Below are positions 4,924 to 60,409 of a stretch of 64,000 bases of DNA, piece after piece; position 1 is the first letter of the stretch, and each line of letters begins with the position of its first letter. The stretch is from Trichodelitschia bisporula (taxonomy: Eukaryota). Under the pieces are notes generated by a model. That model ran no database searches. It was given only the letters and a program-made list of their open reading frames with translations, and was not told the DNA's origin. Made by a program: the position numbers and the translations under genes. The stretch lies in NCBI GenBank assembly GCA_010356995.1, contig ML996692.1, positions 941,933 through 1,005,932 of the forward strand, written 5' to 3'.

Positions 4924-7900
4924 ATGGCGGGCGGCGACCTCATTGCGCAGCCGCTCAATGCGTCCAAGAGCTTCAATTGGGTTCTTCTGATTGAGCTTCT
5001 GGTCTGTGGCATATTGTAAGGGCTCTCCAGGAATTCTTCCGCCAACGATTAACTGTGCTAGGGGCGTCTTCTTCCTCGGATACTTTGACCGGCTCGTTTC
5101 CACCCTCATATCGTACGGCATACGTTTCTACACCTGGCGCAAATACCATGCCTTCATCGATATTCAATCACTTCAGCTGTCGCTGCTTGGGGGCCGAATC
5201 TTCTTCAAGGGCATACGCTACCATGCACACAACGAGACCATCCTCGTTCACACCGGCTACATAACCTGGAACTACTGGCTCCGGCATGTTCGGGATGCCA
5301 AAGTCTTTGAGCCCGGAGATCTAGGAGAAAAACAGGAACCAGACAGCTTGCTGCCCAGCAAGAATCAGGACGAAGAGGGAGGTCGCAAGCCGAAGAACCT
5401 ACCCTGCCGGATCAGCATCCACCTCGAGGGCGTTCAGGCCTTCCTCTACAACCGGAGCCCTGCTTACGATGCGGTGGTCAACCATATGACAGAGGCCAGT
5501 GAGGCAAAACACACTCCGCGCGCGAGTCAAGACCGTGTGCACTCCACCAGCTCCGAGCATGCAAGGCTCGCCGCGTCCGCGGTTGAGAGGATTGCCTCTG
5601 TGCTCAAATCATCCGTTTCCTCCATGCATAGCCGATCTCGGGATGGAATGGGAAGCCGTAGCGAGAAGCCCAAGGAGCGCGAACACGCGTACACGAAACC
5701 GACGCTACCCATGTTCCTCAAGTTGTTACCGATTCATATCAAGTGCGACAAGGCCGCAGCGGTTCTCGGCAACTATAACACTCGTTCCATCATCACCGCT
5801 ACTGTCGAGGGGGCTTCAGGGACAATTGATGCGGGAAAAGCTGGCCTGTTAGACTTGTACAAGCAACTCTTCGAGTTTGAATTTCGTCATCCCGTCGTCC
5901 AGATGCGGACGAATCCCGACTTCAAGGAACCGCAGCTTGCAACTGCCTTGCGGCTGAAGGACAATGGTCCCACCCCTAAGCAGCAGACCAAGCGTAGTCC
6001 GGGTTGGAGTTCGCTGCTCAATTTGCGCCGCCGCTTCAATGCGTCGGTCGAATCCATCAAGGCGTCGCCAGATGGTAGTGGAACCAGCTCCCACCGGATG
6101 GCAAATCTTCCCGGACAGGAACGCTGGCAAGGCCTGAGCAGGTATATGGATTCCAGCCTCTACAGCGAGCATGATGAGTGGGATCCCGTCGAGTACGGCC
6201 GGTCCTCGACGATCATCGACTGTCCCAAGATTGGAATGACCTTCTACTGGGACGTCCCAGGTGTTGTACCACCTTTCGAGCCCATAGGTGCAACTGTCGA
6301 CGCGGTCAATGGCTCCGCGCCTCCGGAGTATGGTCTGGATCTGCGAATCCACGGAGGTACGGTCACTTATGGACCTTGGGCTGACCGGCAACGTGTCAAT
6401 TTCCAGGCAATATTCTTTCCCGCCATTTGGGCTGACGCGATCCCCGGCAAGGTGCTTACTCCTGGCGAAACTCGTGTGTCTACCGTCTTCAAGATATTTA
6501 TAAGTGTAGAGGAAGAGCTGGTGCTACGCGTTCCTGTTCGAGAGTCTTCCAAAGACTGGAAGTGGAAAGGCAAGGCCGAGACGGTAGTCGGCAACCAAAA
6601 CGGCAATGCCCAGGCAAAAGACAAGAGCAAAAGCAAGAGAAGGACCTTTTGGCGCACACGAGATAAAGGCCCTGTTGGTGCCAACGTCCGCCCCTTTGCA
6701 TGGCTGGACGTTAAGATCGGCGCAGACTCGACAGTCACTTATGTCATGGATATGATTGCTCGCAGCAGTGGCTATCAGAACGCCGTTAGCGCGGATGTCC
6801 GTAAGATGGAGATCTTGACGAGCGTAAACCATGGCCTACTTTGGCGGTCTGGTCCTCTCACTGTAGACTGCGATCTGTCGGCCCCGCTTGCCTGGAATGG
6901 ATTGCGGGAGTGGAAGTTCAACATCTGCAATGACGACCTGCAGCTGTTCATCCTGCGAGACCACCTCTTCTTGTTGACGGATGTAATCACAGACTGGACC
7001 TCTGGGCCCCCACCAGAATACGCCACCTTTGTGCCGTTTCGATACTCCCTCAATGTTCGCTTTCGCAACTTCAAGCTCTTTCTCAACACAAATGACTCGA
7101 ACATCATCAACGATCCGTCATCGCTGGAAGACAACCAGTTTATCATTCTGTATGGCCGAGATCTACATGCGGATTTGACGATTCCTTTGGACAAGTTTCG
7201 GCCTGTGCGTAACGAAATTTCCTTTGACATCGTCGGTCTCGACCTGGGGTTGGAGCTGGCGTTAAATTCAAGGAATACCGCTACAGTTTTTGTTGACACT
7301 AAGACCATCGCCGAGTTGGCCAGAGTCACATTCAAAGGCAGCCACGCGTATTTCTCACGAACATCTCACGATCTCACCGACCGCCTCACCTTCATCATTG
7401 CCAGCGATCAGCTGAAGATCAACGCTTACGGCTTCGCTGTCTCCAGGCTTATCAAGCTGAAAGACAACTACTTTGGCGATGACTTGCACTTCAAGACTCT
7501 GGAAGAATTTCAAGAACTGGTGGCGGGCAAAAGTCAGACTGCTGAATCGGATGCAATTGCTCAGAAGTCAAATCGTTCCAATGATCTCGACATCATCATG
7601 TGCGTAACTACCACCAACATATCCGCGCTCCTTCCAGCCAATCTGTACTCTGTCGACCAGGGCATCGTTGTCAACATCCCGTATGCCTCAGGTGACTTGC
7701 GATTGACAAATTATTACATGGACCTTCAGGTTGACTTCAGCCCGCTTAATGTATCTCACCGTGCTCTCAAAGGAACCAGCACAACCACAACTGGTACAGA
7801 GATATTTATCGACAGTGCAAGTCTCAACGGGCATCGTGTTTTCGGCCTGCCCCCAACTGAGCCGACTTACGTTTGTACCTGGAATGTGGCCGTCGGCCCT

Positions 7901-10900
7901 GTCTCGGGCGAGTGTTCTGACAAGTTCCTTGAGACGTTGGCACGCTCCCTTCAGTGCCTCACGTTTTCTATCGACGACGATGAGAACTCGGTCAGTTTGG
8001 TTGAACCGCTTATCATTCATGACATTACCTTCTTGCAGGTCCGGACGCAGGAGGCCAAGGTCTGGCTTCACGTGAAAGACTACGCCTTCCTTGTCAGCTT
8101 GGGCCCGGCATCCGTGGATTTCAACGACTGGGCCGAATCCATGTTTTCAATGCGCTTGAACCTGCTGGTTCCCGATCTGGCTGTGGCTTGCGTCGACGCC
8201 AAATCTGCCATTGGCCGCAAGGCAAAGGACTATGCAGGCCCGGCCAACACCTTCGCGTGTCTACAGACCACGGTTTCGGTGAGCGTTTTGCATCGAAAAT
8301 TTCACTTTAGCGACGAGCGGAAGAAGCAGCAAGCGCACCTCCTCGAGCAGGATTCTCGCACCCGCCGTGCCCCGTTTCTGCTGGCGCAAGAAATGACTCC
8401 CAGCGTCCTCCAAACCCTGGCTGCAGAGGCTGATCCACCTGCAATGATATTCCCCCCTATTCCGGCACCCGAATTTGACGAGTCACCATACGGAAGTACG
8501 CTCTCTAGCTCCGCCAATTCACTCTATGAAGCCGAGCATAGTCTACAATCACAGCCGTCTGACGTAGCGTTCACCGATGTCAGCCGAAGTTGGAAAAGCC
8601 TTCGACCCAAAAGCTCACATGCTTCGCTGGCATCTTCCATTCGACGTTCCACGCATGCTTCAAGGCACACCGGCCCTCGACCCTCCCTCTCGCATGCGGA
8701 ACGCTCACAGCGCAATTCTTACCATAGTTACCAAACTCAAGCTGGCGGAGAACGGCACGCCATACCCTCGGTTAAAGGTTCCTTAGCCGTTCCATGCTTT
8801 CCGCTCCTGAACGTGAGTCCGGACTTTCACGACTTGCCACATTTCGAAAAGGACGCCGAGAACTCTATGCATCTTGACCGGCGGTATGATGCTGCTCGCG
8901 AGGGGTTCGACGAAGACTTGTCTCACACCACGTTTATAATCACCGCTGAGCCTGGAGTCCGGGGGTACTGCAAGCCGGAAGCTGTCATGGCAATAGCAAG
9001 CCTGATGGATTTACTTCAACAAAGGGATCCAGAGGACCTTCTGGATGCTTTTCAGCTGTCTGTCATGACTCAGATTTTGGACATAGAAAAGAAGAAGAAG
9101 GGGGCGGGGAGGTCTTTAGAACTGGCAGTCCGCGTACCATCGATCCTCTTCCGTTTCATCAGTCCGTTTGACTCCCCAGCTCATGAATCCCGACCCGCAG
9201 TCGATCGATACGACTTGAGTGTCCGTCATCTGACAATCGCCGCACGATCGAAGGTCTACCCGGCGGCCAAAGAAATGCCCGATCGGAATACCCTTCATTG
9301 TACAGTGGGATCCGTCACAGTCTCTGCTCGCGAGAACCCGATTGGCCTTGATACTGAAGATCTCGCTTTACGCGCGCAAATTCAACAGCTGACCTTTTGG
9401 GCATTTTCTTCCGAACAAAATGAGGCCAACCTCTCCTTCCACACTCTCGAGTTTGCTACCGCCGGTAAAGAGATCGGATACATCGCTGCGCTCATTCACC
9501 GCACAACCCTGATGGGGAACCGGTTTGCTGCTACCTTTGTTCGCCTGCTGGCTGAAAGCAAGTCTCGTATGGCATATTTGGCATATGAGCTCAGCTTGAA
9601 AAGTGACAGTATTGTCGACCCTCCTTTTCTCACAAAGCCGTCTCATGCTATCCGCGTCGCACCACACCATCTCCGCAACCATGACTCTTGGAAGATAGTC
9701 CACCGCTTCCGCATCATCTACCAGAAAATGGACGAGAACTCTAGGCAGCGACTGAAGAACGCCTTGTTTCAAGGGTCAGCGGTGTGCCCGGATGACTATC
9801 TCGGCGCTGTGCTCAAGAAGTGGGAACGCTGGCGCGTGGAAGATTTGGCACACGTCAAGAAGAGCCTGGCAATGCGATACCTTTTTGGTCCGCACCTTGG
9901 AAGCGAAGATGCCTTTACGATGAAGCCAGCTTTGCCGCTGGTTTTCCATGTCAGAGCCCACGTTATCAGATTGCTGGTTGACCCTGGGCCCCATCAAACT
10001 GAGGTTGCACTTAACACAGTGGTCGCTGGCCTGAGTATCAAGCCTCCAGTCTTACCGGAGGGCTTGAGGCTGGTCCAACTGGACGGCTCTCACCCTACAG
10101 AAGATGTTTTGCTCCAAGCATCTATGCAATCGTTTACGGTCAGTGTCGACTGGGAGATTACCGCACTTATCCGGAACGTCGTTCATTTGTTCCAACGTGA
10201 GAGCATACAGCCAATTACTCCTCCGACGTGCCCAGCACCACCTCAGCTGCAACCCGAACGAGCTACGTGGCGGTCCATTCAAGTTGTCCTGGCTATTGAT
10301 GCGGTAGTGTGGAAAATTGGGTTGATCAACATCCGAGGCGATGTGACCTGCGAGTCGTGGCGCCTGTCCCTGCTGATGCTGGATAAATCCGCCACCAAGG
10401 AAGGTCTGAGGATGAGCGCTCTGATTCATGCTGCAAATGCCCATGCCAATGTGTTTGCACACTCTCGCCTTTTACTAGAGGGGACGGCCGGGGCTCCCAA
10501 TCTCTATATTTCCCGCGAAGCTCAAGTCCCTTCCACCTCAATGGAAGACAAGTGGCGCATAACGGGAAGCAACAAGCTGATGACCATCAAGGTTCGAGAG
10601 GAGATTCTAGGTGTCCTCGAAGTAGCGGATAAGGTGCTGCGCGATGAAGTGGCATATTTTAAGGAGAGGTTCACTTCTCTCACTGCCGGCAAATTCCCAC
10701 AGACCCCGGAGGTTGGAATCACTGAGCAAAGGTTGCCAAAGGTTACGGTTGCCCTGCTGATGGACACATACCGGTTCGACGTTGCACTCCTTCAATCTCT
10801 CACCTACACCCTCGCTGGGAAGCTTGGCCGGATTTCCGTGTCCCCGGCACTTCATCGACTGCTCTCCATGGAACTAAATTTTGACGTCGATGAGCATACC

Positions 10901-13900
10901 CACGGCCTCTGGAGCCACAGTCAAGAAGGCAATGACGTCATATCGACATTCAAGCTGCCTCCTGTCAACGGTCAGATCAAAGTCTACGAAACCAAAGAGC
11001 GTTTGGATCTTTTGGTTACCATGATTGTAGAGACTGTCGTACTTGATGCGACACCCCTCCACGCACTCATGAGCACTTTCAGCCGGCCAGAGGTCTCCAG
11101 GACCTTCGGCGCCATTCAAGCCGATATTGCTGCCCTTCGGCGACGTTTCAAGCTCATATTTCCCGAGTCCCCTCCACGCACGCCCGCTACCGAGGTGGTG
11201 CTGTCCCGTTCTGTCACATACAACGTGGCTCTAACACTTGCGGGAATCAGCGTCAGAGCCGATGCCCCAGCAAAACATCCCGGTGCCGGCATCGCAAGCC
11301 TATCTCTGGGACTTAAGCGTGTGAAGCTCCGCGCTTTCAATGCCTCCAACGGTGGGAGTATCATCCTTCCACTTCCTGAAATCCATGCGCAGCTACAGGA
11401 GTTCTTTGTTGCGCTCTCCATTGCCAACAAGCTTGGTTCGCGCCCTTGTGGAAATATTAGACTTTCTGCCTCGGTGCATTGCACGATACGCAAGTCTCGG
11501 CGGAAAGAGCCGAAGCGAAACTACCGCATACGCGTTGATGGAGTTGAGATCAATGCTTTCGCCGAAACTGCGTCAGCAGTTGTGGACGTGCTCAACCACC
11601 TTCAAGACAGGATCAGAGATTTAGACCTTTCGCGGGAGAAGAAGTATTTGCAACGACTACGCGCTCCGACGCGAAAATCTTCGGCACATCTCATGGATGC
11701 TTCCGTGTATTCGGAAAGCAGCATGACTTCCAGTGGCCTTTTCAACTCGGCGTTCGCCGTTTCAATCTACGGAGTCCAGGTCAGCTGGATAGTGGGAGCC
11801 TCCGTTCCGGCATTCCCTGGCTACGAGAACGAAGATCTGGTCTTGTCCATAAAGATGATTGATTTGTCGACGAAGTCAGAGCATTCTTCAACACTAGCGA
11901 TTGAGGCTTTGCAGCTCCAGATGGTACCTGGTTCTCAGGACAAGAAGCGCCGATCAGTCAATTCAGCCCTCCTTCCCGAGGTGGTCTTTAATGTTGGCTA
12001 TGTCTCAACCGATAATGAGCGGAAGATGTCATTCCACGCCGCCGGGAAATCACTGGACCTTTTAGTGGACTCCAAGTTCATGGTACCAGCGAATTCGCTA
12101 CAGCGTTCCATCGGCCTTGCCGTCGATAAATTCCGCGATGCCACAGCCTCCTGGCAGATGACTCCAACTGCTACCGGAGCCCAGCGCAAGAACCCCTTTG
12201 GTGACAAGCGGTTGTCTTCTTTGCGCGTTGACGCCGATTTTGCCGGTGCTGTTGTCAGTCTTCGAAGTCGAGCGCGGAGCGAGCGTTTGGGCCCGAGCTC
12301 GCCCCTTTCCGGTGTCGAGCCTCATCAGGGACGATATGGCCAGTTTACAGGCGAAGGGGCAGCGTCAGGTGCCACCTTGAAATCTCCGGGCATTGCCATC
12401 AAGGTCGAGTACAGCGACACTGGTGTGGATCCGTCTCTCAGCGTCGAGGTGCGGGTGAGCGGATCATCGAATACGCTTACCCCGACAGTGGTGCCGATAA
12501 TCATGGAAATCTCGGACAGCATCAAGACTGTTGTAGGCGATGCTGAGAGCCCGACTGAAAATTCTGACAAAAAGATGACCCAAAGCTCTCTTCTTGATGA
12601 GAACCTTCTAACAGCGGATCCGAGCACCTTGCTGGGGAAAACGCGCTTTAACCTGGGCCTTCGTATCTGCAAACAGGAGTTCAGCCTCAGCTGTCAACCT
12701 ATAGCTCGCGTTGCTGCCTCGGCAAAATTTGAGGACATCTACGTCACTGCGAACAGCGTCACCTCGCACGACAACGATGCCTTCTTTTCAGTATCGGCGG
12801 CATTCCAGGGGCTCGAGGCTGAAGTCAAGCATGTGTATTCTCGAGAGCCAACATTTAGCTTCAACGTCCCGAAGATTGCTTTATCGATCATGAACAGCAA
12901 GCATCTTAGCGGCACAGCTGGAATTTCCGCGATTCTCAAGCTTTATCCAATGCATACAAGAATCAATGCTCGACAACTTCACGACTTTCTCCTTTTCCGC
13001 GAGATTTGGATTCCTCCCGAAATTCGCAAAGCTACTCCCTCATCGCCGACAACGAATCCTGCTTTGCCCCAGGACTATCTTGTTCAGCGCTACCAACAAG
13101 TTGCGACCGCGACGGCATTCCCTTGGAACGCTACGGTCGCTATCGAGAGCATTGCGGTAGAGCTGGAATTGGGACAAGCCCTAGGGAAGTCAAGCCTTTT
13201 GATCAACGACATGTGGGCATCATCTAGGAAGGATTCAAACTGGGAACAGAACCTCTGCGTCGGAATAGGGAGCATCGCTGTCACCAGCGAGGGTCGGATG
13301 AGTGGCTTTGTCGAGCTCGACAACTTCAAGGTCCGAACCTCGATCTCCTGGCCGGAGGTTGAGGGCGGCCATCACCAAACTCCAGCCATCGAGGCCTCCG
13401 TCGGATTCGACAAGCTGAGCATGAAAGCTGCATTCGACTACCAGGCATTTGCGATTGCAGATGTTGCTTCCTTCGCATTCCTCATGTACAATGTTCGAGC
13501 CGACAGAGAAGGCACCAAGGACCGGCTAGTTGCGATTCTGGACGGAGATATGGTTCACGCCTACTGCACTGCGTCGGGTGCTGCTCAAGGTCTTGCTCTA
13601 TACCAGGCATTTGAGCGGTTAGTTCAAGAAAACCAAACTGCGTACACCCAGTCCCTTAGAGACATTGAGAAGTATCTGCGACGGCAATCGGTGCTGGTCC
13701 CCTCGCATTTTGGGCCGATAGTGAACCCCGAGGCCAAGAAAGAGACAGACGACTTGAAGACACCGATATCCCTCTACACGGACGTCGTGGTTACGTTGAA
13801 ATCAATCGACATTGGAGTCTTTCCAAGCGCCTTCTACGACACACAGGTCTTCCTCGTCGACGCATCAGACGTCCAAGCCCGCTTCGCCGTCGCGCTAGAA

Positions 13901-14593
13901 GCCGGCAAAATCCATTCCGCCCTCGGCATGACCCTCGGCCAGCTGCAAATCGCCGTAACAAACACGACATCGCACCCAGACACCCCCAAGAAACTCGGCG
14001 AAGTCACAGTCGACGGCGTCGTGCACAGCATCCCCAGCACGCGCTCGGGCATCATCCTCCGCGTGCCCAAAGTCATCGCCACGATGCAGACATGGCAGGT
14101 GCCCGGCATGTACTCCATTGAGTACATCTTCAAGAGCCGGTTCGAGGGCAAGGTCGACGTGGGCTGGAACTACTCGCGCATCGGCATCATCCGCTCCATC
14201 TGGAACACGCACTCGCGCACCCTGGCCTCGCGCCTCGGGAAGCCGCTGCCGGAGTCGGCGGTGCGGATCACGACGGGGTCGAAGAGTGTGGATTCGGCGG
14301 TCGCGAGCAGCGCGGGCGGCTCTAAGCCTGCGTCTGAGGACGGCAAGGACGAGAATATTACGGCTGTGGTGGTCAATGTGCCGCAGAGCCGGTACGAGTA
14401 TGCGGCGCGGGAGCCGCCGGTGATTGAGACGCCGCAGCTGCGGGATATGGGTGAGGCGACGCCGCCGTTGGAGTGGATTGGGCTGCAGAGGGATCGGCTG
14501 CCGAATATCACCCATCAGATTGTTATTGTAGCGCTGCTGGGCGTGGCGAAGGAGGTTGAGGATGCATATGGGAGGATCCTGGGGAACAGCTGA
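4924..14593 (+). CDS. CSF1: Csf1 / BLTP1 (KIAA1109, Tweek) bridge-like lipid transfer protein, ~3200 aa; exons 4924-5015, 5062-14593
   Basis: N-terminus MAGGDLIAQPLNASKSFNWVLLIELLVCGILGVFFLGYFDR (TM anchor), SLQLSLLGGRIFFK, YGPWADRQR, and C-terminal PPVIETPQLRDMGEATPPLEWIGL are Csf1 hallmarks. Intron 5016-5061 (GTAAGG..TTAAC..TAG) joins the true ATG to the 3200-aa ORF frame. Confidence 0.95.
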
Positions 14594-23500: not shown

Positions 23501-26500
23501 CCCCCCACTCCCTCCTCACGTTATCAGACGTTGGGCATCCGTCCAGCGTGCTAACCGATCTTTGGTTATGGTTGTCAACGGGCGGATGCGGGGCCGCCCC
23601 TAGAGCATGCTTGAGTTCCCATGAGGCAACGTCAAGTTAACATTAGTACGAAGCGAAAGCGCCTTTGTTAGTATACCGCCTGGCGCTAGTTGCCCAACAT
23701 TGGCAGTTTTCTGTCCGCCAGGCGGCTAACGGCCTGCCGGATTGACGGCCATTGAGTTCTGCGCGCGGGAAAGGTCTTGCGCGGTAGTGCGGCGAAGAGA
23801 CCCAAAACACTCCCAGGACAATTTTGAGCCTTTTGAACGACACGTTCTCATCGCCGCCATCCCTTTGAAGCAATTGATGTACGGATGTACGCGCTGCTGC
23901 TCGCGCTGGCAGCGGAAATCTCCAAAGGCTAGAATGGTCTGGTAAGGCATTAACGATCTTCTCCGAACCAAACAGTTTGAAGTCTTGGTAAGTCCCTTCC
24001 TGGTCCCTGTCCCGGATGTTTATCCCGCCATGATACTATCCTACACCTCACCTCATGTACGCTTTACGGGAGATAAGCCACCATGCTGCCCTGCGCCGGA
24101 TCTTATAGTACCGCCCAGTGAGAGGCTCCGCGGTAGGCATCGTTACGCCTAATCACAGACTCCGCTGGCTGGAGCAACGCAACGAGACTGGAGGGTGACG
24201 ATTGTCTACCGGCCCCACCGCCACGCAAACAGAGGATGTGGAGAAGGGTCATCTCGCCCGTGCACGCGGAAGCCGTAATCCTCTCTCTTACCGTCCCGGC
24301 AGACTCGAACGGAGCCTCTCCTCCCCCTAACCACAGCACCAAATATTGCGCTTTCCGATTCCTGTCCCTGCGTCGGGCAACGATCAGTGCCTGCGAGAAT
24401 CATTGGGAAAGGAAATAAAAGCGCCTGACGAAACCCTCAAAAAGGAAGCGGTTCCTGTATCTGGGATTCATTCTCGCAAGGCCGAAGCCTTCAAACACGA
24501 AAGCAATGGGGCCTTGACTGCTTGAACGAGGCGGAAGGCGCCCATGGCTGAAAAAGAGGTCGTTCCTGCGGCGCATTGAACAAAAGCCAATTGCCAACAA
24601 TAGATCTACTTGGGCGCGGCCTTCAAGCCTCCGAGATCACCTGCAGCCTCGTATTAGGGAGTCGCCCGGCTGTGTTGGTTTGGGACCTCCTAGCATCAAT
24701 TTTCCCCCCAGGGCCGCAACAAGAAAAAAGCCATAGGCTTTCACGATTCCTTAATGCGCCATCAGCAATGCTCACGCAGAAAAATGGAAAGCATGAGCTC
24801 CGCACCCCGGGGAGGGGATAGCCACTGACCCATCTCCTGGCCCGTACGCTGTGGAGACTCCACCATAGCCAAAGGCTCGACGGATGGCGAAGCTTAACAT
24901 GATTGCATTGGCTCTTGGGCGTCGTCCAGTCACGCTGTGCATCAGCAGTCCATGAGCTGTGGTCGTCGCGCGCGGTACTTCTTGGAGTCTTTTGGATGGA
25001 CGCCGCCCCCAAGATCTTCTCCCGTCGAATCCTGGACGGCACTCTTTTCCTACGCTTCATCATTACTAACTGCTAGCTTATATTCTTCATCGTCTTCCTT
25101 CGTCACTTTTCGGTTCAAACCCCTTCCCCGCGAAACCTACTGCCCACCCTCCCCTCCCCCACCTTTACCGCACATCCACTGATTCCCCTCTCCCCCTCCT
25201 CCCCCTCCTCTTCACCTCCCCCCCCCACCCTCCGTCATCCCGTGCCTAGTAGTATCCTACAGTCATTCGGCCTGGAGCTCGTCCTACCTGGGTGTGGCAT
25301 TTTCATCCGTCCTTAGCTTAAACCACCCTTGAGGCTCCCCTTCCCCTCCCTCTCATCTAGCCCGGCCTTGTCCAACTCTGTGTACCTTCATCGAGTCTGT
25401 CTCTCGTTTACCCCAATTACCGCTTCCGGTTCACGCCTCATCTCCGGCACGGCCCCCCGGATTGCGCCCATTCAGACGGACCCTAGCTTTCACTGGGCAT
25501 TCTTTCAGAGAAGTACCCGGGCCAGAAGTCAGCCATTCTACCCCGGTCCGCCCTCACCTTTTGGCGTCACTCCCGGTTCAAGCTCACATCAACCTTACGG
25601 TGCCGACTAACCAACCAACCTTCCGATCACCTGAAATTCACACACGCGCGCCTCCACAATCCATCATCCAAAACCACCTCGCCAGTTTCCGTTCATCCTT
25701 CGCGCATCCCAGCGTGCTCATCTTGCGGCGCTGCCGAAGCATCTCCAGCCCATCGGTTCCAGTCTCTCACCAGCATCGGTAAATTAGCTCCGCGGCATTC
25801 AAGGCTTCAGCTGAAGTGGGCTGCTTAGAGCCTCAAAGGTGTGCATGCCCTTTGACAGCGCAGGTTGATGGGCTTGATCGTTCGTGCATGCACTCTTCCG
25901 TCTACCCTTCTACCAAAGGGCCCACCGGGACTCCATTGGTCGAGGTCCACTGTTGTGCGGTACTTGAGTACTTTCTCTGACGTGAGTGTCAACGAGTTTC
26001 TTTCATTATCTTTCTCTCTCCAGGGTTTAGGCACATCGTCCTAAATCAAGTTCGATTTGGCTCTGCCGGTCGGATGTGGCCAGCAGCCGACTAGAAAACC
26101 GATCACCCAAACCACATGTTGTCCCAGTTCCCTTGCTTTGGCGCATTTCTTTAACTCCAGTGCGAGCACAACTTCCCCATATCTCTAGAGTATATGTACT
26201 TCTCCCACTTGTTCCCCTCGTGGTTCCGTCTCGACATCCCGGTTCAGTCAGTTCTGATTCAACTACACCAAGAAGCGTCTTGCAGACGGCAGGCATCACG
26301 GAACTGTTCTTCAGATTAGCCTTTTTCCTCTATCTCTTTCTCCCTCTCTCCCTTCCCTGCCCTCCAAAGTCACTGAGGCAACGTCGCTAGTGCGAAGATC
26401 CCAGCCTCACTCACCGCGAAACACTTGATTCGCCTCTGAAGCCTTTGTTCTGGTAAGACTCCATCGCAAGACTAATGTACCTATGCGAACCACTCATCTT

Positions 26501-27384
26501 AAATCCCAAAGACGAGTTCGCTTGTTGCTGCTCATTCATATCGCTGCCATCGAAACAAGTCTCCCCTTCTGAATTGATTTGTTTCGCCCTGGCCGAAACA
26601 CATAGTAACAGCGTAATAGTCAGCCTGGTGGGCCGTCCACAACATCTGGGTCAATTCAAAGGGCCGCCGCCGCCTTCTCGCATTCTGGCATTCTCTACTC
26701 TGGCAGTTGAAGGGAGATTCTCAATTCTCTTTTTATTTTTCGGTGCGCGAAGTAGTGCGGCTGTCACCTCTCCACGAACCCCCACCCCAATCTCCATCTC
26801 TGTGACCGGATTCAGCCCGGGGATACCAACTCAGTTGACCTCACCTTCGGGTTGGAGCACATGTGAGATTCGAGCACGCCAGACGCATCGCTCCTTCCCA
26901 TCTGGCCGCACGTTGGACCCTTGCACCTTCCCCACGGTTGCACAACCGCACAACCGCACCCCCGAAACCCACGCCTCTAGCAAGAACAGCAACAATCTTC
27001 AACCTCCCAAACCGCCAAACTGGCCTGTGTTATAGGTTATCAATGCATTGAGGTACGTGTCACTCTTTATTTCCCTCGTTCTTCTGGTCTTGTAGTTTAT
27101 GATCGTCTCATTGGCTCCTGACTGGGTTGGTTACTGCGCCTCTTTGATATTGCCTACTTGGGTGATATGAGCCTCTTCCTGGCTGCTGCCTGGACTTGTT
27201 GACGACTCTTTACCACACTAACCGAAGGCTGCCATGCTAACTTCTATTTGCACGCACTCTATAGTCCAAGCCTAGCCTCAAGGCGATTTTAACCGACTGG
27301 AGGGGACCGTTAATATCTTCAAGCGACATATTCGACGGTCGGCACTCGGCAGCCGCGCCAAATCCCGCCGCCACACTGCTGTCG

Positions 27385-29733
27385 ATGTCTGGCTACGACG
27401 AAAAGGCACAGGACTCACATGAAGCACAAGACTCATATGTGTACAGTAAGTGCTCTGTGGCTCAGATGACCCCCATGTCTTTCCAAGGCTGAGCAACCCC
27501 ACTCATGGCTTGCAGGCCCGGGACGACCCGGCCTTGGGGCTCCCTGGGAAAGTACAGTCCCGATGACTGGAATACTGACATGTGCGCCTAGACTATGCCT
27601 CCACGCGGTCGAGTCAACCGGAAGGCTATGCTGGGTTTACGCAGCCTTCCTTTGGCCCTCAATACCCTGGCCCCCATGCTCTCCTAGGGCCTTTCGAGCC
27701 TCGTGATGTCGCCTACCCTCCATCTGCCATTCAGCCGTTCATGGATGGAGGAGGCCGGATTCCGCTTGAAATAACAACACTCGGTCCTTGGAATGGCATC
27801 GCCGGAGACACGTTTCGCCTGGATCTTCGCAGCAGGAGCAGCCCTACCGCGCAAAGGGTCACTTTCAGTTTTATTTTCGGGTCCCTGTCGGTCAAAGCAA
27901 AGCTCACAGAGAGCTCACGGTCGGACAGCCTCCACCATTTTACCATTTCAGCCAAGATTCCTCCTGCACAACAAGCCCAGATGACGGTCCCACTGTACCT
28001 CGAGATACAGGACGAAAATGGCCACTCACTTGAGATGAAACAGATGAATTACTTTACCTACCTGCAAGCTGGTCAGACATATTCTGCTGCGCCTCTGGCG
28101 AACCCGTCTAAGCGAAAGTCGGAGTACTCTGACGACCACGCAGACTATGCGCCATCACCCAAGCGCTCGGCTATTCAGCCGATGCAGTCAACTAGATACA
28201 GAGATGCTGCAGACATCTACCAAACGGGCCCGGGCGCAGGCTCTGGAGGTTCGGGTTATCTCAGCAACAGTAACCTCTACGCGTTGCCAACGGCGCACGA
28301 TCGGCCTTCCCAGCATCAGCGTTCTTTCGGCCAACCGCTTGCACGGAAGCCGACGTATCATTACCCGTCGAGCCAGGGCCAACAGGCGACGGGATCATCG
28401 AGTCTTGTCGGACTCTACGACTACTCAACCATCTCCCGAACGAACCCCAGCCCAAGGTTGACGGCTCCACGGACGTTGTTAACTCCCCAGCATTCGCAAC
28501 CGCAAGAGGGTGGAGCAAATCCACCGCTTATCCGAACTTCCATTCTGCAGCCGTCAGCTCAAGTTTCCTCGTCAACCTCCGCCGTACCCACCGCAAATGC
28601 CTTCAATCCATACATCTTATACCCCAATCTCAAGGCAACCCTCATTATCCAGGGCGATTTATCGTCAATGAGCGAGAACTGGACTGAAGATGAGACCAAG
28701 GCGCACAGGCGGCTCGTTGAATTCCAACGTTCCCAGTCGGGGAGCACCATCACCACCGTTTTCAAAGCAGTCACTCCCGAGGAGCGCGTCCAGAACAGCC
28801 CTTGTATCAGCTGCATCTGGTGGGAAGCCAGACGGGAATGCTACGTAACGAGCGTCGACACCATTTCCCTTTTGGAATCCCTTGTTGCGGTGCGATTTAC
28901 GGTGGAGGAGAAGAATCGCATCCGCAGGAACCTCGAGGGCTTCAAACCGCTGACAGTCTCGAAGTCCAAGGAAGATACGGTAGACTTTTTCAAGATTATA
29001 ATGGGCTTTCCAGCGCCCCGGCCGAGGAACATTGAAAAGGATGTCAAAGTTTTCGCTTGGTCCGTTCTTCCATCCGCACTGAAGAAGATCATCAGCAAAT
29101 ACGTGAGTGCAGTATATGGATTGCGAGGTTATCACTAATGGTGGAAAGCAGTCCGCATCCTACACCAGCACCTCATCACTCCTTGTTCCAAACATGGCCA
29201 CGCCAATCCCAACGACCTACGAAGATAGTTCGCAGGCTCCCGTAACCACTCACGAAGTCCTGCCGCCGAGCAACTCGGGGCCACAGCGCCCCACTGCTTC
29301 CCCCCACTCCACGGCAAGCTCAGTCGTGTCCGTATCAGGCGGGTATCAAACCAGCATGACTTCGTCCGCCTTGTCGCCCAAGATCGCCGGATCAACAGGT
29401 CTGGAGGTCACAGCCTCAGCAGGTCATGGACACCACGGGGCGATGGGGTTGGGGCAGATGATATCTGCCTCCGGGCATGGGCATGGGCATCAGGGCATGG
29501 GGGGAGGGGGACAGTGGTCGGCACAATATGCGTCGGCACAGGTTCCACAGTTCGCAGCCGCAGCACTACCAGGCGGGAACCCGGGTCGCCATCCTTCATG
29601 GGACATGGGTCTAGCATCGGGATTCCTTGAGCACAGTCCCGGAAATGCGACGGTCACCGGTGCCAACGTTGGATCGCGCTCCGATGCGACGGGCGGTTAC
29701 CCACCATCGAGTCAGCAGACCAAGAGGTCCTAA
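27385..29733 (+). CDS. medA: Medusa (MedA/ACON-3/ACR1/REN1) developmental regulator; exons 27385-27445, 27592-29102, 29152-29733 (possible CUG-initiated extension from 27020)
   Basis: Conserved domain CISCIWWEARRECYVTSVDTISLLESLVAVRFTVEEKNRIRRNLEGFKPLTVSK...MGFPAPRPRNIEKDVKVFAW...LKKIISKYSASY; also NPPLIRTS. Introns 27446-27591 and 29103-29151 are canonical and in frame. Confidence 0.93.
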
Positions 29734-32700
29734 AACGAGCGATATGGAGAGAGCGCAAACAGTGTTTCGCGAGATGCTGAGTGTGTGCGAGTTGCGGGTG
29801 GTGTGGGGGCTGGGATTATTTTGCTTGCCTGCTTCATCGGCAGCGGGGCAGCAGACTAGAGAGGCCAGCATCCAGCACTCGGCATCATGCACGCTTTCGT
29901 ACCTTGCCTTGCCTCCCGGGCCTGGTAGGATTAAAGCAAGGCGTCGAAGGAGGAACATGCAGTCATGCGCCACTCACCTTTGGGGCACCGGACACCATTC
30001 AGCTAAGCCACTTTGGGAATAGCTCCTTGCTTTTGGTTGCATCCCCCCACCACAACTCTCTTGCACCATCTCTTCTTTCGGACAACACCACCCTCTACTC
30101 TCACCACACCATCACCACCAGGACTCATCATCACATGGAATAATGCATTTGGCTTGCGTCCTTACGCAAGCGCACCGTCACCTTTTCGTCTCTCCTCGCT
30201 CCTAGGTGAGCACTCGGACAAGCCTTCGGGTCCCCTCGTATTTTCACCGTTCCATGGCTCTCGAACTGTGCATTTCTCTCACTTTTCCTCACAGCGCAAG
30301 CACATAGATCCGGATTTCTCTCGCGAGGACCTTCATTCTCTAGTTTCGAACGTCGACGGCTCGACTGTTAGCATGGCGCCTTCTAGTCGGCGGACTAGTT
30401 CCTTTATATCCGGGCATCGGGGCGGCTATTTCGTCTCGGATGGCCTTTGTGCCACCGTGGACACTCTTTTTAGCGATTGACAGTATCCATTCACAGCATT
30501 ATTTAACATTGCATTGGCGTTGGATTTTCTTCATCTTCATTTCTTTATCTGGGTTGGGTCGGGCAAGGGTCGGGAATCTATACAGGGGTGACATCGCTAT
30601 GTATGGGCATCAACGGGACGACAGAGCATCATGAGGCGCACCTTCATTATTTGCTGGCAGCTGGTCTTTTATTCGGCGTTTTTTGGCTGTGTGGTGTGGT
30701 GTGGCTTAGGTTCGCCAGTTATTCCTCTTCTACCCCGTTGCTATTCACATTCTCACATGCAAGTATGCGTAATCCGCGCAATGTGGTTGCTTTCAGGCTC
30801 CTTGGTTGCTATGTTATATTTTTGGCTTCCTTTGCTTTGATCATTTGCTTCGGTGAAATGGGTGGAGTTGAATCTTCGGAACTCAGGCGCGATATTCCCC
30901 CGGATGCAGCGGTGAGCTTCGCGGACGTTTTCTTGCGAGCTATTTGTTTTAATACTTAATCCCAGGATGACTGGTGGGCAGCTTCTTCTCCATTTCACTT
31001 CTCAGCTTAGTATCCAAGGAACCTGACAGCAGAATGGCAAACCAAGTTTGGAGAACTCTACCTCACTTTGTCTTGCCGAATCATTCTTCTTCGCCGAATT
31101 TCTCTAAACGGAGGTCGCTGTTATCCCGCCTTACCGTACGGCCTAAGCGAGAGCCTCACTTTCTCCGTCAGCAGCGCCGCGCACTTCTTCACCCGCCCAT
31201 CAGGCCATTTCCCCACGGGCGGCACGCCGCAATCGCGGAATATTCCGCGCTCACTCGCCACGAAGCCGGACGCGCGGCTGCGGTTGCGGCACGGTGACGC
31301 GGCGGCGCGGGCCTTACGGCTGAAGCTGAAACGGGTGAATCAACGTCCGGCTCCGCCAAGTTTGGTGGTTGAAAATGAGATCGGCGCATTTCGAGATACG
31401 TTACGGCCTTAATCCTCGCATCGAACTCCCAAGAACGACCATCACAATTCTCAGCGCCGAATCATCATCACTATCCGCGTCTTCCCCGCACCCCGCCCGT
31501 ATTTTGCTTGCCGTGCAATCAGGCACCTGACGCCCAGTCTCGAAGCGCATTTAAACTTCGCGCCGCTTCCCCGCGTGTTGCAGGACCCGCGGGAGCGCGG
31601 GACGAGCGCGGGAGCTAGGGCGCTCGTTGCGAGAGGGAGGCGTGATTGGCGGGTATTGTGATGATCACTTTTAATTTTACGATTTTGATGCGCTGCAATT
31701 GGCGTGTTGTTTTCGTGGCGCTGACGCGTGAGATGGGTTTTTGCGGGCTGAGCTGGACATAAGAGTGGAAGTTAGAAGCTGGATGGGGATGAAGCTGACT
31801 TGGTTATCAGGTGAGTCTGTATGGAGTAGATGTGCTCGCTGCCTGGACGGCGTTGCGGATGAAATTCCGTACAGGGTTTATCGTTCTGATAATGGAGAAG
31901 ATGCTGAGGCCGGGCGCGGCTGAGTGCAGCCCCAGACCGGGAGCCGAGGCTCCAAGTCGTACTGAGCGTTGGGCGTGGACGCCGGGACGCCTTTCGGGTG
32001 GCTTTCGAAGGGAGTGGGGGCAGCAAAAGTGATGAACCCGAACATCCCGGCGTTCATTTCTCAATGCAGCTGTGGGGGCACGAGAAAAATCCCAGCACGA
32101 CGGATTGCGCGAGTGGCTGAATTATCGCCAGGCCGCGATGAAGGAAGCCGTTTCTGTACGCCCACGCCGGATCAGCAGGCGATCGGGCATCAGCACCAAA
32201 CATCAGTCCCAGCTCTGCGGGCCCTAGCAGCAACGTCGCACGCATTATCGCTCAGCCCGCGAACGAACAAACACTAGCCAAACCTTAACCTCGCAGCAAT
32301 ATCATTGCCGCCGATCCCGATCGCCATCCCACCTCTGCGATATTTCATTACGCCTCGCCAGGCCCGCCATAACTGCTAGAAGTACAGCCGGTACGCAAGT
32401 CATCACGAGCCGGGCCAGCCCTCCTAACCACCCCCGTCCATGAGAAAAAAAAAGCAAGCAGCCCGGCGCCCGTTAGCGCGCGCCCATCGCGTGCGCACCA
32501 CGCCGACCCCTTGATATCTTACCACGCCCCATCCTTACGTCCAGTCAGGCGGCGTAGCAAATTGTGGCACTTGTCGCGGCGTTCGTGGGCGTTCCTCGGG
32601 CGTACCTGGCGACCCACTGGGCGGCACGCCTCTGCCAAGCGGCTAATATCCCTGAGCGCCAGCCGCGCGCCTCGTGCGCCACGGGCGCTGCCGTTTGGGT

Positions 32701-39311: not shown

Positions 39312-39918
39312 GGTTTTCGGTCTGAAGATTTAGGAATACGATGGCACACTGAGCTGGACGGCGATGTATAATGTATCTAGTAGGTCTGTGCCTGAAGGTT
39401 TAGCAGCTGCCTTCCACGCTGACGCCCGCTCGCGATGTTTCAATCCAAGGCCTCCAGGATACTAACCGAGGCCATTACCATTGCCATGCTAAAAGCTTAA
39501 TTGCAAGGAAACATTCGCTGGGCGTTCTTCCGAGATTGGCAGGCAGCTTGCCCTGTCGTGACCGTCTACAAGGGCCATCCCCACCCCTCCAAACATGGAG
39601 TAAGGTGAATAGTGTATCTCAAGCCTTGCAATGCATCGGCCATTGTACAGCTCCATCAGCGCAAACGGCAAACCAGAGAAAGCCGTTTACCTCATGTGAG
39701 CCGTACACGCATCCGTTAACGTATATTGCGTATGCACGCAATTATTCTCACCCCACATCGCGCCCTTAGCGTACCCCGCCACGCTATCATTCCATAACAG
39801 CTACCCCACCTTCACCTCCACTCTTAAAAAAGTACAAGTGACCCGTCGCCGCCCGCCTCCTTCCCCATTTACCCCGCTAAAATCCTTACATCCCAAAGCT
39901 GCCATCCTTCCCTCAACC

Positions 39919-40842
39919 ATGGCGACCGAAACTACGCAAACCGTCACCGATGCGCCCTCCGTAACCCATCTCTCACCCTCCCCCCTCCTAACGGACCTCA
40001 ACCGCGATGGCTACGTCATCATCCCCAACGCGCTCTCCCCGGAGCAACTCACCTCCCTCCGCGAGGCAGCCGGGCACATAACCGACCTCGCACGCAAAGG
40101 CCAATGGCCCTACATCCGCACGCTGCCCAAGCAATTCCCGCCATGGTCCTCCGACCCCTCCAACGGCATCTGGGGCGTGCAGCACTTGATGCACCCAGAC
40201 ATGCCGGGCCAACCCCTCTTCGCAGCGTCCTACTTCACCGACGCCGTCGTGCGCCCCGTCATGGACCTGATCGGCTGCACCGACGACTCGGAGCTCATCA
40301 TGGAGCTGTACAACCTGCTCGTGCGGCCGGACAGCGACTTCGAGCTGCGCTGGCACAGGGATGACATTGCGGCGACGGCGACCGCGGAGGAGGAACTCGC
40401 GCGCCTGAATAAGCCGGCCTGGCATGCGCAGTGGAATCTCGCGCTGTATGATGATGCGAGCTTGATTGTCGTGCCGGGGTCGCATGCGCGGGCGCGGACG
40501 GACGCGGAGCGCGCGGCTGACCCGTTTGAGAAGAATATGCCGGGCCAGAAGATCGTGCAGATGAAGGCGGGCGATGTGGTCTTCTACAACAATAATATCC
40601 TGCATCGCGGGGCGTACTCGGCGAGTGTGGAGCGTGCGACGCTGCATGGGAGCATTGGGCATGTGAAGGGGAATAAGGAGCGGGCGCGCAATGTGCTTCA
40701 GCATGGCGTGGGGGCGTGGGTCGACAAGGTTGATTTTAGTGCCTTGCCGGAGGAGCTCCGCGGCCGGGCGGAGAATATGCGCCGCCGGTTGAAGCAGATG
40801 GGAGACGTGAGCGGGGATGTGGGCTTTGCGCATGACGATTAG
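39919..40842 (+). CDS. Phytanoyl-CoA dioxygenase (PhyH) family Fe(II)/2-oxoglutarate dioxygenase, intronless
   Basis: LNRDGYVIIPNAL N-terminal motif, HxD (WHRDD), LIVVPGSH, MKAGDVVFY and distal His (ILHRG). ATG context caaccATGg. Confidence 0.9.
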   Translation: MATETTQTVTDAPSVTHLSPSPLLTDLNRDGYVIIPNALSPEQLTSLREAAGHITDLARKGQWPYIRTLPKQFPPWSSDPSNGIWGVQHLMHPDMPGQPLFAASYFTDAVVRPVMDLIGCTDDSELIMELYNLLVRPDSDFELRWHRDDIAATATAEEELARLNKPAWHAQWNLALYDDASLIVVPGSHARARTDAERAADPFEKNMPGQKIVQMKAGDVVFYNNNILHRGAYSASVERATLHGSIGHVKGNKERARNVLQHGVGAWVDKVDFSALPEELRGRAENMRRRLKQMGDVSGDVGFAHDD

Positions 40843-47870: not shown

Positions 47871-49986
47871 TTACAACTTCGCCTTGGGCGGCTCCGCCGT
47901 CGCGCTCAGCACGTCGCGGATGTCATTAGCCGCCTCGCCGAGGTAGAACTGCATGCGCTCAGCGCCGAGCTTCTTGCTGACGATGTTGAACTGGATGTTG
48001 TTCTCGTTGATCATGTAGGCAATACTATTCCAATTAGTATCTCGTCACGTGGAAAAGGCAAAGAGACTCACCCCCAGCCATCATCCACAACCTGGCTCCA
48101 GCCGTACCCGTTGAAGTACTCGCTGCTCAGCTGGCTGCTGCTGATAAACCACGTGGAGGAGTATGTGAACGCCGGGTCCGTGAACAGGGCGGGCGGCTCC
48201 TCGCCCTCACGCAGGCACTTCTTCAGTCCGAAGAGATGGCGATCCACGCCACGGCCATCACCCGCATCGCTGATGTACTTCACATGCGCGTCAACGGCAG
48301 CACGGAAGAGCTTGGCGGCCTCCTGAGGTCCAACGTTGGGGTCAGCCATGGCGTTGCAGAAGGCGACACTGTCGTCCGAGACAGTGCGGCACGTCTCCGT
48401 GCGGCCCTCCTGGAATTTCCTCGTGGCGGCCGACTCGTATGTCGGGCGGTTCTTGCCGTAGAACTTGTGGTAGGCCAGCTGGATGATCATCTGCACGTAC
48501 GCGTCGGGCGAGCACTTGAACTTCTTGATCAGGCCCTTGCCGTAACCCTGGTACGCCTGCACCCGCAACTCGTGTGCGCCGATCTGTCCGTCGAAGTGGC
48601 GCTGCGCGGCCGCCAGATCCTCGGTGATAGTGTCGTTGATCTTCCAGCCCAGGGCCTGCGGCTCGGGGAGGTTGGAGCGCACGGATGGGTTGTCGAAGTC
48701 TAGGGCGTTGGTGAAGATGAGCTGGTTGACGTAGTCGTTGAGGCGGTGGGTCGGCGTGCCGTCCATCATGCTGTGTTCGCCCATGAAGCCCGACGTGCCG
48801 TTGTCGTTGACGATGAACTGCAGCGGCTTGTCGAACCAGCGGTTCTGCCCGTCGCCGTGCCAGTATTGACGTGCGCGCTCCTCGAGCGTAACAGGCGCAG
48901 CATCGTCCAGGCAGACAATGAAGGACGAGGACTCAATCGCCTCAAGAGTGGCCTTGTTCTCCGGGCCCGCAGCGAGGAGGTGCTCGCGCGCGTGTGTCCA
49001 CGCATCGCGGTTTTGCGTGGTGAGGATGCCGACCGGGGCGGCCTTCTCGGCGCGCTGGTAGACGCGGCGGAAAAGGGTTTCGAGCTCAGTGGTATTCAGC
49101 TGCTTACCGTTGATGGTGTGGGGCACCTTGAAGAACTGATTCTTGCGGATGACGATGATGTGGGCGTTCGACTGGTAGTCGTACTTGACCGGATAGTCGG
49201 AAGGGATGGCGGGCACACGGCAGGCGTTGAACATCCACTTGTAGGAGCTCATGGCCATAGGCAGCTTGCGCATGTACTCCGGCTCAAGCGTCTTCTCATC
49301 CACCTGCTTCTTGAACTCAAGCGTCGCGGTTGTGAGCGCGGCGGCGCGCTTGGCAGGGTCGCGACGCTTGCGGTCATCCTTGTGCGAATAGAAGTAGCTG
49401 ACGTACGGGACGACGGGATCGCGGTATCCAAGGTATGCCGAGTCATTCCACCAGTCGATGATCCAGTTGTTGACCTTGGGGTCCTCGCGCTTCGCAATCA
49501 GGCGCTTCTGTAGGGTCTCGCCGATACCACCGGGGCGCACGAAGTCATCGACGGCGGCCTTGGAGACCTCCAGCTCGGACTCGCTGAGCAGCGGGTGCAG
49601 CGACTTGAGGTAGCGGCGCGCCGTCTCCTCGAGGGTGGGCACAGGCAGCTTCGGGAGAGACTCCTCGAAACGCAGCATAGCACCCTTGCTGTGATCCTCC
49701 TTATACCCTGCATGCGGTGTCAGCTATGGCTCTCCCCTCTCGTTTTCTCGCGTGTTCTCGCATTTCGCGGGGTGGACTACCTGCGGGGAGGGAGGAGCTC
49801 TTGCGTGCGGGGGCCATTGCGGCGGAGAACTTGAGATGACGTTAGCGGGGTACGGCCACAGCACGCGATCGGCCAGGAACAGCAACGCACCTTCAAAGAC
49901 GAAGCTGGTGTGAAAGCTCGCTGGCGGAGTAGAGATAGTGATGTGGGAGCACGGGCTCGGGCTATGCCATTGAGTACATTGAACAT
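47871..49986 (-). CDS. CAT2: Mitochondrial/peroxisomal carnitine O-acetyltransferase (Cat2/AcuJ type); exons 49986-49891, 49829-49781, 49707-48072, 48024-47871
   Basis: SLPKLPVPTLEET, NRWFDK, catalytic GEHSMMDG, TYESA, GRTET, GVDRHLFGL. Arg-rich, acid-free exon-1 presequence; C-terminal -AKL PTS1. Confidence 0.95.
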
Positions 49987-59700: not shown

Positions 59701-60409
59701 GATGCTTGAGGCGTTTCTTCTGCGTCTTCAACTGGTCCTGCTTCTTGAAGAGATCCAAATGGGTCAGAATGCCAAAAACGTTGCCGGGCATGCCGCTCGA
59801 GCTGAGGATGTTGAGAAACTCCATCGTCTCCATCTCAAACCCGTAATTGCCATCAATCATCAGCAAAAGTATGTCCACCACCTTGGCCGTGTCGACCATG
59901 CTTGCTAACGAGTCGGACGGGCATTCGATGAAGGTAAGGCGGCGGCGCTTCGATGTGACGACAGTGAGCGGGCCCGTGGGCGAAGAGAGTGTCTGCTTAG
60001 TGTAGCGGCGGATAAGAGACTTGATGAGTGTGGTTTTGCCGACCTGCGTATGTTAGATGGTCCTGTCGACGAAGGATGGGCATAACGTACGCCTGGAGGG
60101 CCGACGACGGCAACGACGAGCGGTGGGGGCTCCTCCGGAATGCGGTCGACGAGCGGAACATGTAACCGCTTCTCGCGGACCTGTAACTCTCTCAGTATAC
60201 TCTCCGTCAACCGTATTGTCAACGTACATCATGTGAGCGCGACGCGGTCTTCTGCAGGCGGCCGGGATTCGCAAAGGCAAAGGCTTTAGGATTGCGCTCT
60301 GGGGGCCGTTAGTCGTGCACGTCACGACAGGCAAAGAGCAAAACGTACCTCCCGAGCTAGCCTTCTTCTCCTTTCCCTTCCTATGGGGGCGATTGACTTG
60401 TTCCGACAT
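56753..60409 (-). CDS. BMS1: Ribosome biogenesis GTPase Bms1; exons 60409-60349, 60298-60228, 60180-60091, 60043-56753
   Basis: RNPKAFAF, KRLHVPLVDR, P-loop GPPGVGKTTLIKSL, GFEMETMEFLN, RIKRHRWHKKILKTNDP, RMLKYTPEHMHC. RRPE-like GAAATTTT about 55 bp upstream. Confidence 0.97.

Follow-up and report, generated by a model that had tools for sequence, protein, structure and literature searches.

A probable CUG-initiated, spliced N-terminal extension of the sporulation regulator MedA in filamentous ascomycetes

The medA locus

The analysed stretch of DNA (64,000 nucleotides, hereafter the window) carries a homolog of MedA, a regulator of spore formation in moulds. The gene is present in a single copy in the genome and its product was assigned to DUF7082/PF23305 (Pfam, 238.6 bits), with the conserved C-terminal domain present. 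The closest stored protein, P0001 (labelled Trichodelitschia bisporula), begins at the ATG at position 27385. The gene and its neighbours, the latter identified with Pfam, are arranged as follows.

4991-14593: Csf1/BLTP1 neighbour
27385..27387, plus strand: annotated AUG (start of P0001), in poor context (T at -3, T at +4)
27385..29733, plus strand: MedA coding region, with introns 27446-27591 and 29103-29151 and the optional intron 28072-28143
ending at 34567, minus strand: OPT transporter neighbour
39700-40842: PhyH dioxygenase neighbour
48068-49723, minus strand: carnitine acyltransferase neighbour
56753-60052, minus strand: Bms1/Tsr1 neighbour

Splicing was analysed with assembled contigs of two public runs (X1 and X2) of one sample, whose RNA status is presumed rather than on record; contigs of this kind cannot define the transcription start, expression levels or intron retention. 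Nine GT..AG joints were found at medA across both runs, which fits an mRNA origin of the contigs. The optional in-frame intron of 72 nt within the coding region (28072-28143) was spliced out in a contig of X2 and kept in the long contig of X1. Its splicing would drop 24 residues, among them the basic cluster KRK; a cluster of this type is present in 26 of 33 aligned homologs and absent from the spliced model P0001. The contigs reach approximately 1.8-2.0 kb beyond the medA stop codon (29734-31747), which suggests a long 3' UTR, and a low-depth joint (31811-31900) lies just past their extent.

Structure of the leader

The medA leader is at least 1.2-1.4 kb long up to the AUG and contains alternative introns at 25779-25828 and 25982-26619. 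The features of the leader and of the candidate extension, all on the plus strand, are listed below.

25231..25778, plus strand: most 5' leader exon seen (contigs start at 25231 and 25243, at a simple repeat)
25779..25828, plus strand: optional 50-nt leader intron (joint in run X2 only)
25829..25981, plus strand: leader exon; each of its three uATGs (25845, 25868, 25888) has T at -3
25982..26619, plus strand: 638-nt leader intron; alternatively introns 25982-26390 and 26453-26619 flanking an optional 62-nt exon, 26391-26452
26620..27052, plus strand: exon with uORF, in-frame stop and CUG, in long contigs of both runs
26861..26866, plus strand: start-stop uORF (ATG TGA) 159 nt before the CUG, in the zone of a common poor-context uAUG
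26978..26980, plus strand: in-frame TAG bounding the extension frame
27011..27025, plus strand: candidate CUG start (27020-27022) in optimal context (A at -3, G at +4), ACCGCCAAA-CTG-GCC
27020..27052, plus strand: extension codons 1-11, up to donor 27052/27053
27043..27051, plus strand: out-of-frame two-codon uORF ATG-CAT-TGA, its AUG 10 nt before the donor and in poor context
27053..27264, plus strand: 212-nt phase-0 intron within the extension (GCTAAC branch, TAG at 27264)
27265..27384, plus strand: final 40 extension codons, all open, leading to ATG 27385

The first-pass annotation of this DNA had proposed that MedA carries a spliced 51-residue N-terminal extension initiated at the CUG, accompanied by the small uORF at 27043. 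Re-reading of the sequence confirmed all of its coordinates (CTG, donor, intron, branch, acceptor, ATG, TAG and small uORF). The context of the OPT gene start, to which that of the CTG had been likened, exists as quoted on the minus strand and opens a plausible N-terminus. Three further leader introns, the uATGs at 25845-25888 and the start-stop uORF at 26861 had been omitted. ATG is absent from positions 25243-25778 of the most 5' exon.

The predicted junction 27052/27265 was found in contigs of both runs of the sample, which skip the 212-nt intron 27053-27264 (joint 27050 to 27263, GT..AG with a cut of +2; short side 183 letters). Long contigs of both runs extend from 26619/26620, pass through the CUG exon and continue into the coding region; the CUG is thus part of the assembled mRNA. 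Four leader forms were built, and in each the MedA frame stays open over the 64 codons that follow the TAG at 26978, with no in-frame ATG between this TAG and ATG 27385.

A different splice form could let an upstream AUG begin the extension, namely by joining donor 25981 to acceptor 27265, which puts uATG 25868 in the MedA frame. The phase fits, rare variants are lost from contigs, and in many database models the extension starts with an upstream Met. However, this joint is absent from the contigs of both runs and would omit the exon with the invariant CTG, the database first exons conflict, even among Penicillium models, and no in-frame ATG lies between the candidate codon and the preceding stop in the 43 analysed loci described below, where checked (all but L038). 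This form is therefore considered extremely unlikely.

The MedA frame upstream of the AUG holds 11 near-cognate codons, and CTG 27020 has both A at -3 and G at +4. The six AUGs from 25845 to 27385 all have weak contexts, which leaves the CUG as the one optimally flanked codon. A strict conserved-context pattern, derived from the relatives post hoc, has a single match on both strands of the 64 kb window, at 27020; on a context matrix this site scores 15.4 bits, and the second-best site 7.9. Among near-cognate codons, CUG is one of the most efficient initiators in fungi.

Conservation of the CUG codon

A metagenome scan yielded 329 confirmed medA stretches, the best 80 of which were examined: 43 were analysed, 13 near-identical twins were set aside and 24 were unusable (23 with contig ends too near the gene, and L013). 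The last of these (L013:1-2700) is a medA copy that has neither of the two 5' exons (with the CUG and the main AUG) and follows immediately after a Ras-like gene; it is apparently 5'-truncated or decayed. An in-frame upstream AUG is present in 13 of the 43 analysed loci and absent from 30; removal of sequences more than 95% alike and addition of the window left 9 and 27 distinct sequences, respectively.

CTG occupies the candidate codon in all 27 distinct sequences without an in-frame upstream AUG (the window and 26 relatives), with C at -4, A at -3, G at +4 and C at +5 likewise invariant and positions -1 and +6 free; the conserved CUG that the first-pass annotation had expected in relatives is thus borne out. 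From this CTG the methionine of MSxYxK is reached without a stop in 27/27, a count that for the genomic loci leans on our acceptor rule, since this rule was revised: its first version chose out-of-frame sites within the exon in 5 of 22 rows and was replaced by one requiring a stronger branch plus YAG (the splice site of L038 was placed by eye). The eight transcript-like loci of this group are independent of the rule, and all eight are in frame without any splice prediction. The extensions measure 132-168 nt (44-56 residues), in every case a multiple of three, and every genomic relative with an in-frame codon has a predicted intron after codon 10 or 11. All 36 sequences keep the downstream ATG.

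The context matrix was applied leave-one-out and codon-blind, seeded from sites seen by eye. It reached the homologous site in 35 of 45 rows; nine rows were placed by eye (eight in the AUG clade, plus L029) and L058 was cut off. In the non-AUG group it landed on the homologous CTG in 30 of 31 rows, the other being L029.

According to a quick tree and to named neighbours, the non-AUG group comprises clades with Venturia, Cenococcum, Pleosporales, Acarospora, Xylographa, Penicillium, Aspergillus and Helotiales-like sequences. On this placement the CUG is kept across Dothideo-, Eurotio-, Lecanoro- and Leotiomycetes-like clades; no Sordariomycetes (acon-3, Ren1, Acr1) could be identified in the named hits, and the counts do not extend to them.

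A profile of the extension and the first residues after the AUG matched 169 proteins among 1.84 billion representatives, and nearly all of the 150 matches listed show the MedA pattern. One Xylographa-like fragment (P0286) reads K-I-A where others have K-L-A at the start position, which may mean an AUU, AUC or AUA start in that lineage. In Botryosphaeriales-type models (P0026, P0029, P0036, P0059, P0066 and P0078) a shared Met precedes the main Met by 48-54 residues; it may represent another genuine gain of an AUG or a model start derived from an intron.

Selection on the extension and its properties

The extension evolves as protein, under purifying selection, as judged by several features of its sequence: (i) stops are absent from 1420 in-frame codons, whereas the two shifted frames contain 39 and 68, and the 1368 codons just upstream contain 39; (ii) pooled pN/pS is 0.41 (14 pairs, 13 of them below 1); (iii) changes at the three codon positions in 11 nucleotide-aligned pairs number 82/54/128 in the extension versus 111/95/89 upstream, with a third-position bias of p=1e-7 and p=0.27, respectively; and (iv) 7/7 indels in the extension are in threes, versus 4/47 upstream. 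The synonymous bias that had been suggested as a check is therefore present in the relatives. Values (ii)-(iv) were computed on pairs of relatives; for the window itself the evidence is the open frame and the homology of the peptide. CTG accounts for 54 of the 163 other Leu codons in the extension, so a preference for this Leu codon does not explain the fixed CTG.

In the window, the exon lengths of the extension (33+120 nt) are the same as in L002, L004 and L006. The whole 51-residue extension beats 1000 shuffles on the profile (9.5 bits versus 6.8 for the best shuffle) and aligns to a Venturia effusa model (z 5-7) and to L002/L003 above 1000/1000 shuffles, also after the first and last two residues are trimmed. 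Its second exon gives 1.0 bit on the family profile and is not matched by the exon-only profile; an acidic motif common elsewhere, P-[IL]-[IV]-x-D-[ED], is missing from the window and from L002-L006, and has probably drifted in the lineage of the window.

This loss of the family motif is what would be expected if the extension were vestigial or untranslated in this species, or if the CTG block were a DNA or RNA element instead of a start. Yet the window retains the best context class, the open frame and the exon lengths of its relatives, and the combination of free -1 and +6 positions with invariant bases fits the shape of an initiation context followed by an Ala codon, not a binding site. We regard this explanation as very unlikely. 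No conserved hairpin was found 3' of the CUG (mean z -0.37).

The net charge of 34 extensions ranges from +3 to -10 and is mostly negative; that of the window extension is 0. A cryptic organelle-targeting function (PTS2 or presequence) was rejected, as none of the 34 extensions matches a PTS2 pattern and they are mostly acidic, not basic amphipathic. AlphaFold2 modelling of L066 gave no secondary structure in the first 50 residues (pLDDT of the block 37-41). Most likely the extension forms an unstructured tail, as this model predicts, with a mostly acidic-hydrophobic composition, and it would fit an activation or stability element. Elsewhere in the same model (L066:989-3229), residues 135-240 form a confident all-beta Ig-like domain N-terminal to DUF7082, with weak matches to many Ig folds, including the IPT/TIG domain of EBF1 (E 9e-4); the region has no Pfam match in P0001.

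Upstream AUGs and the annotated start

The annotated AUG lies in poor context throughout, with a pyrimidine at -3 in 36/36 sequences and T at +4 in 34/36. The small uORF at 27043-27051, which was thought to catch ribosomes scanning past the CUG, is present as described; it is nevertheless lineage-limited (7/27 sequences) and would catch few ribosomes, because its AUG is in poor context. Among the distinct Dothideomycete-like sequences that lie outside the AUG clade, 7 of 9 have an out-of-frame uAUG 10 nt before the donor, opening uORFs of 2-4 codons; none of the 18 remaining sequences has it. The codon preceding it varies (Arg, Gln or Pro) and always ends in A, which hints at selection on the AUG among these related rows.

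Further upstream, 32 of 34 sequences contain a second uAUG, 120-215 nt before the CUG, that the first-pass annotation had not noted. It occurs in 8/8 transcript-like loci versus 9% expected from the frequency elsewhere in their leaders, in a zone picked post hoc. Its uORFs span 1-89 codons, and no conserved peptide was found in them. Reinitiation control of the GCN4/cpc-1 type, which relies on a short stimulatory uORF1 in good context and a conserved inhibitory uORF after it, was considered and rejected: the upstream uAUG has a pyrimidine at -3 in 31/33 sequences, and the downstream one is restricted as described above.

Gain of an in-frame AUG in Mycosphaerellales

The 13 loci with an in-frame upstream AUG form one clade (support 99 in the quick tree). 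Their N-terminus was also found in named proteins of Teratosphaeria, Pseudocercospora, Friedmanniomyces, Dothistroma and Acrodontium, by which names the clade corresponds to Mycosphaerellales. The AUG lies 18-22 nt after the CUG position, six codons on. The CUG position itself holds an in-frame CTG in 4/9 distinct sequences and GTG, TTG or CCG in 3/9, and is out of frame in 2/9. Such loss of CTG is consistent with the prediction of relaxed selection on the start codon; the contrast represents a single evolutionary event, so its p value (3e-4) is overstated. The new AUG is in weak context, and A at -3 and G at +4 of the old site are mostly kept, so both starts may still serve in this clade.

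In L025 the CUG is out of frame and the AUG stands at the old 20-nt spacing. This resembles an intermediate in a tentative and rather doubtful scenario, in which the uAUG that is out of frame in other Dothideomycetes moved into frame in Mycosphaerellales and replaced the CUG there. In this scenario the CUG would be the main MedA start in many filamentous ascomycetes, and a leader with a fixed weak uAUG about 170 nt upstream, an optimal CUG and a weak main AUG would make dose and N-terminus a readout of stringency (eIF1/eIF5 state).

Comparison with known systems

The nearest parallel is cpc-1 of N. crassa with its Pezizomycotina homologs (PMC5487733). Like cpc-1, medA encodes a transcription regulator and has a long leader with uORFs, an in-frame near-cognate codon that is deeply conserved and optimally flanked (PMC5487733 names A-3 and G+4 as the key positions) and an extension under purifying selection that is absent from annotations. 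The two differ in several respects: medA has one invariant CUG, whereas cpc-1 has several near-cognates (CUG, AUU, ACG); the medA extension comprises 44-56 residues with a conserved intron within, versus approximately 180 residues; the uAUGs and main AUG of medA are in poor context, versus good in cpc-1; and medA is without the conserved long overlapping inhibitory uORF. The cpc-1 starts were tested experimentally (used in vitro, with <1% of main-AUG reporter activity in vivo; PMC5487733), whereas that of medA is predicted here from sequence and contigs.

Swaps between weak AUG and near-cognate starts across lineages have been described for fungal dual-start genes (PMC7049704), and the Mycosphaerellales clade resembles these genes in such an exchange. 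The extensions described there are mostly organelle targeting signals, in contrast to those of medA.

In the MedA/ACON-3/Ren1/Acr1 family (DUF7082, PF23305), A. fumigatus MedA is a protein of 683 aa whose residue 1 corresponds to the downstream AUG, and the available part of PMC3503810 describes no upstream start. In a primer given there, in-frame codons upstream match the end of the extension in Penicillium and Aspergillus niger models. The AUG-started protein is nuclear (PMC3503810), so the extension is not required for import. Expression of the minimal complementing fragment relied on 1.5 kb of native upstream DNA (PMC3503810); by inference, complementing constructs therefore still carried the CUG extension, and the alcA-driven ones presumably lacked it.

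The accessible part of bioRxiv 10.1101/627414 mentions a uORF for brlA, not for medA. No paper on a non-AUG medA start was found in a search whose coverage excluded the original cloning papers and genome-wide ribosome-profiling supplements. The probable CUG-started MedA extension is conserved and apparently unreported.

Proposed mode of initiation

The central proposal of the first-pass annotation, a spliced, CUG-initiated extension of 51 residues, is strongly supported by the splicing in the RNA-like contigs and by conservation. Translation of medA very probably starts at a CUG approximately 50 codons before the annotated AUG, and we regard it as highly likely on these grounds that the extension is translated, whether as one of two forms or as the sole form. 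Because this start precedes the annotated AUG, MedA would be longer than database models and published constructs assume.

How the two starts are shared may be explained by leaky scanning, which we consider reasonably probable. The medA mRNA leader is long, multi-intron and AUG-poor, and scanning ribosomes would bypass several weak uAUGs, the last being the start-stop uORF, before reaching CUG 27020, the sole optimally flanked start of the region. A fraction would start there and produce MedA with the 51-residue extension encoded across the 212-nt intron. The remainder would scan on, a few being lost at the weak two-codon uAUG 27043, and others would start at the weak-context AUG 27385, producing the annotated shorter MedA. 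We infer initiation at the CUG, use of both starts and leader control of MedA dose from conservation.

It is also conceivable, if rather unlikely, that the CUG is in effect the only start, with AUG 27385 an internal Met and a single long, low-level MedA set by near-cognate efficiency. Such a reading would account for the optimal context being confined to the CUG, for the pyrimidine at -3 that the annotated AUG shares with the uAUGs of the window, and for purifying selection on the extension; Podospora IDI-4, mentioned in PMC5487733, is a proposed CUG-started fungal transcription factor. On the other hand, the downstream ATG is invariant while neighbouring positions vary, and its poor -3 base may merely follow from a conserved Ser codon. 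Moreover, most scanning ribosomes pass a CUG, and those that do must initiate somewhere.

For leaky scanning, the idea that two MedA isoforms are tuned by start-codon stringency is plausible. Since the main AUG is poor in every sequence, a change in stringency would affect both starts, and MedA may be made mainly in the CUG form; stringency may set total MedA dose as much as the isoform ratio.

Significance

In Aspergillus, MedA controls when conidiophores develop; how it acts is still unsettled (PMC3503810). The conserved, unannotated N-terminus alters the medA gene model in several fungal classes: the downstream Met can be recognised in 100 long stored homologs, of which 19 begin at this Met, 6 at the Mycosphaerellales-type AUG, 75 with other upstream sequence and none at the CUG position. 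This matters for earlier experiments as well, in that native-promoter medA constructs would carry the extension and ORF-only constructs would be without it. The gene offers a cheap test of start-codon stringency feeding into fungal development, and, if the CUG is indeed the main start, the dose and N-terminus of a sporulation regulator would read out this stringency directly.
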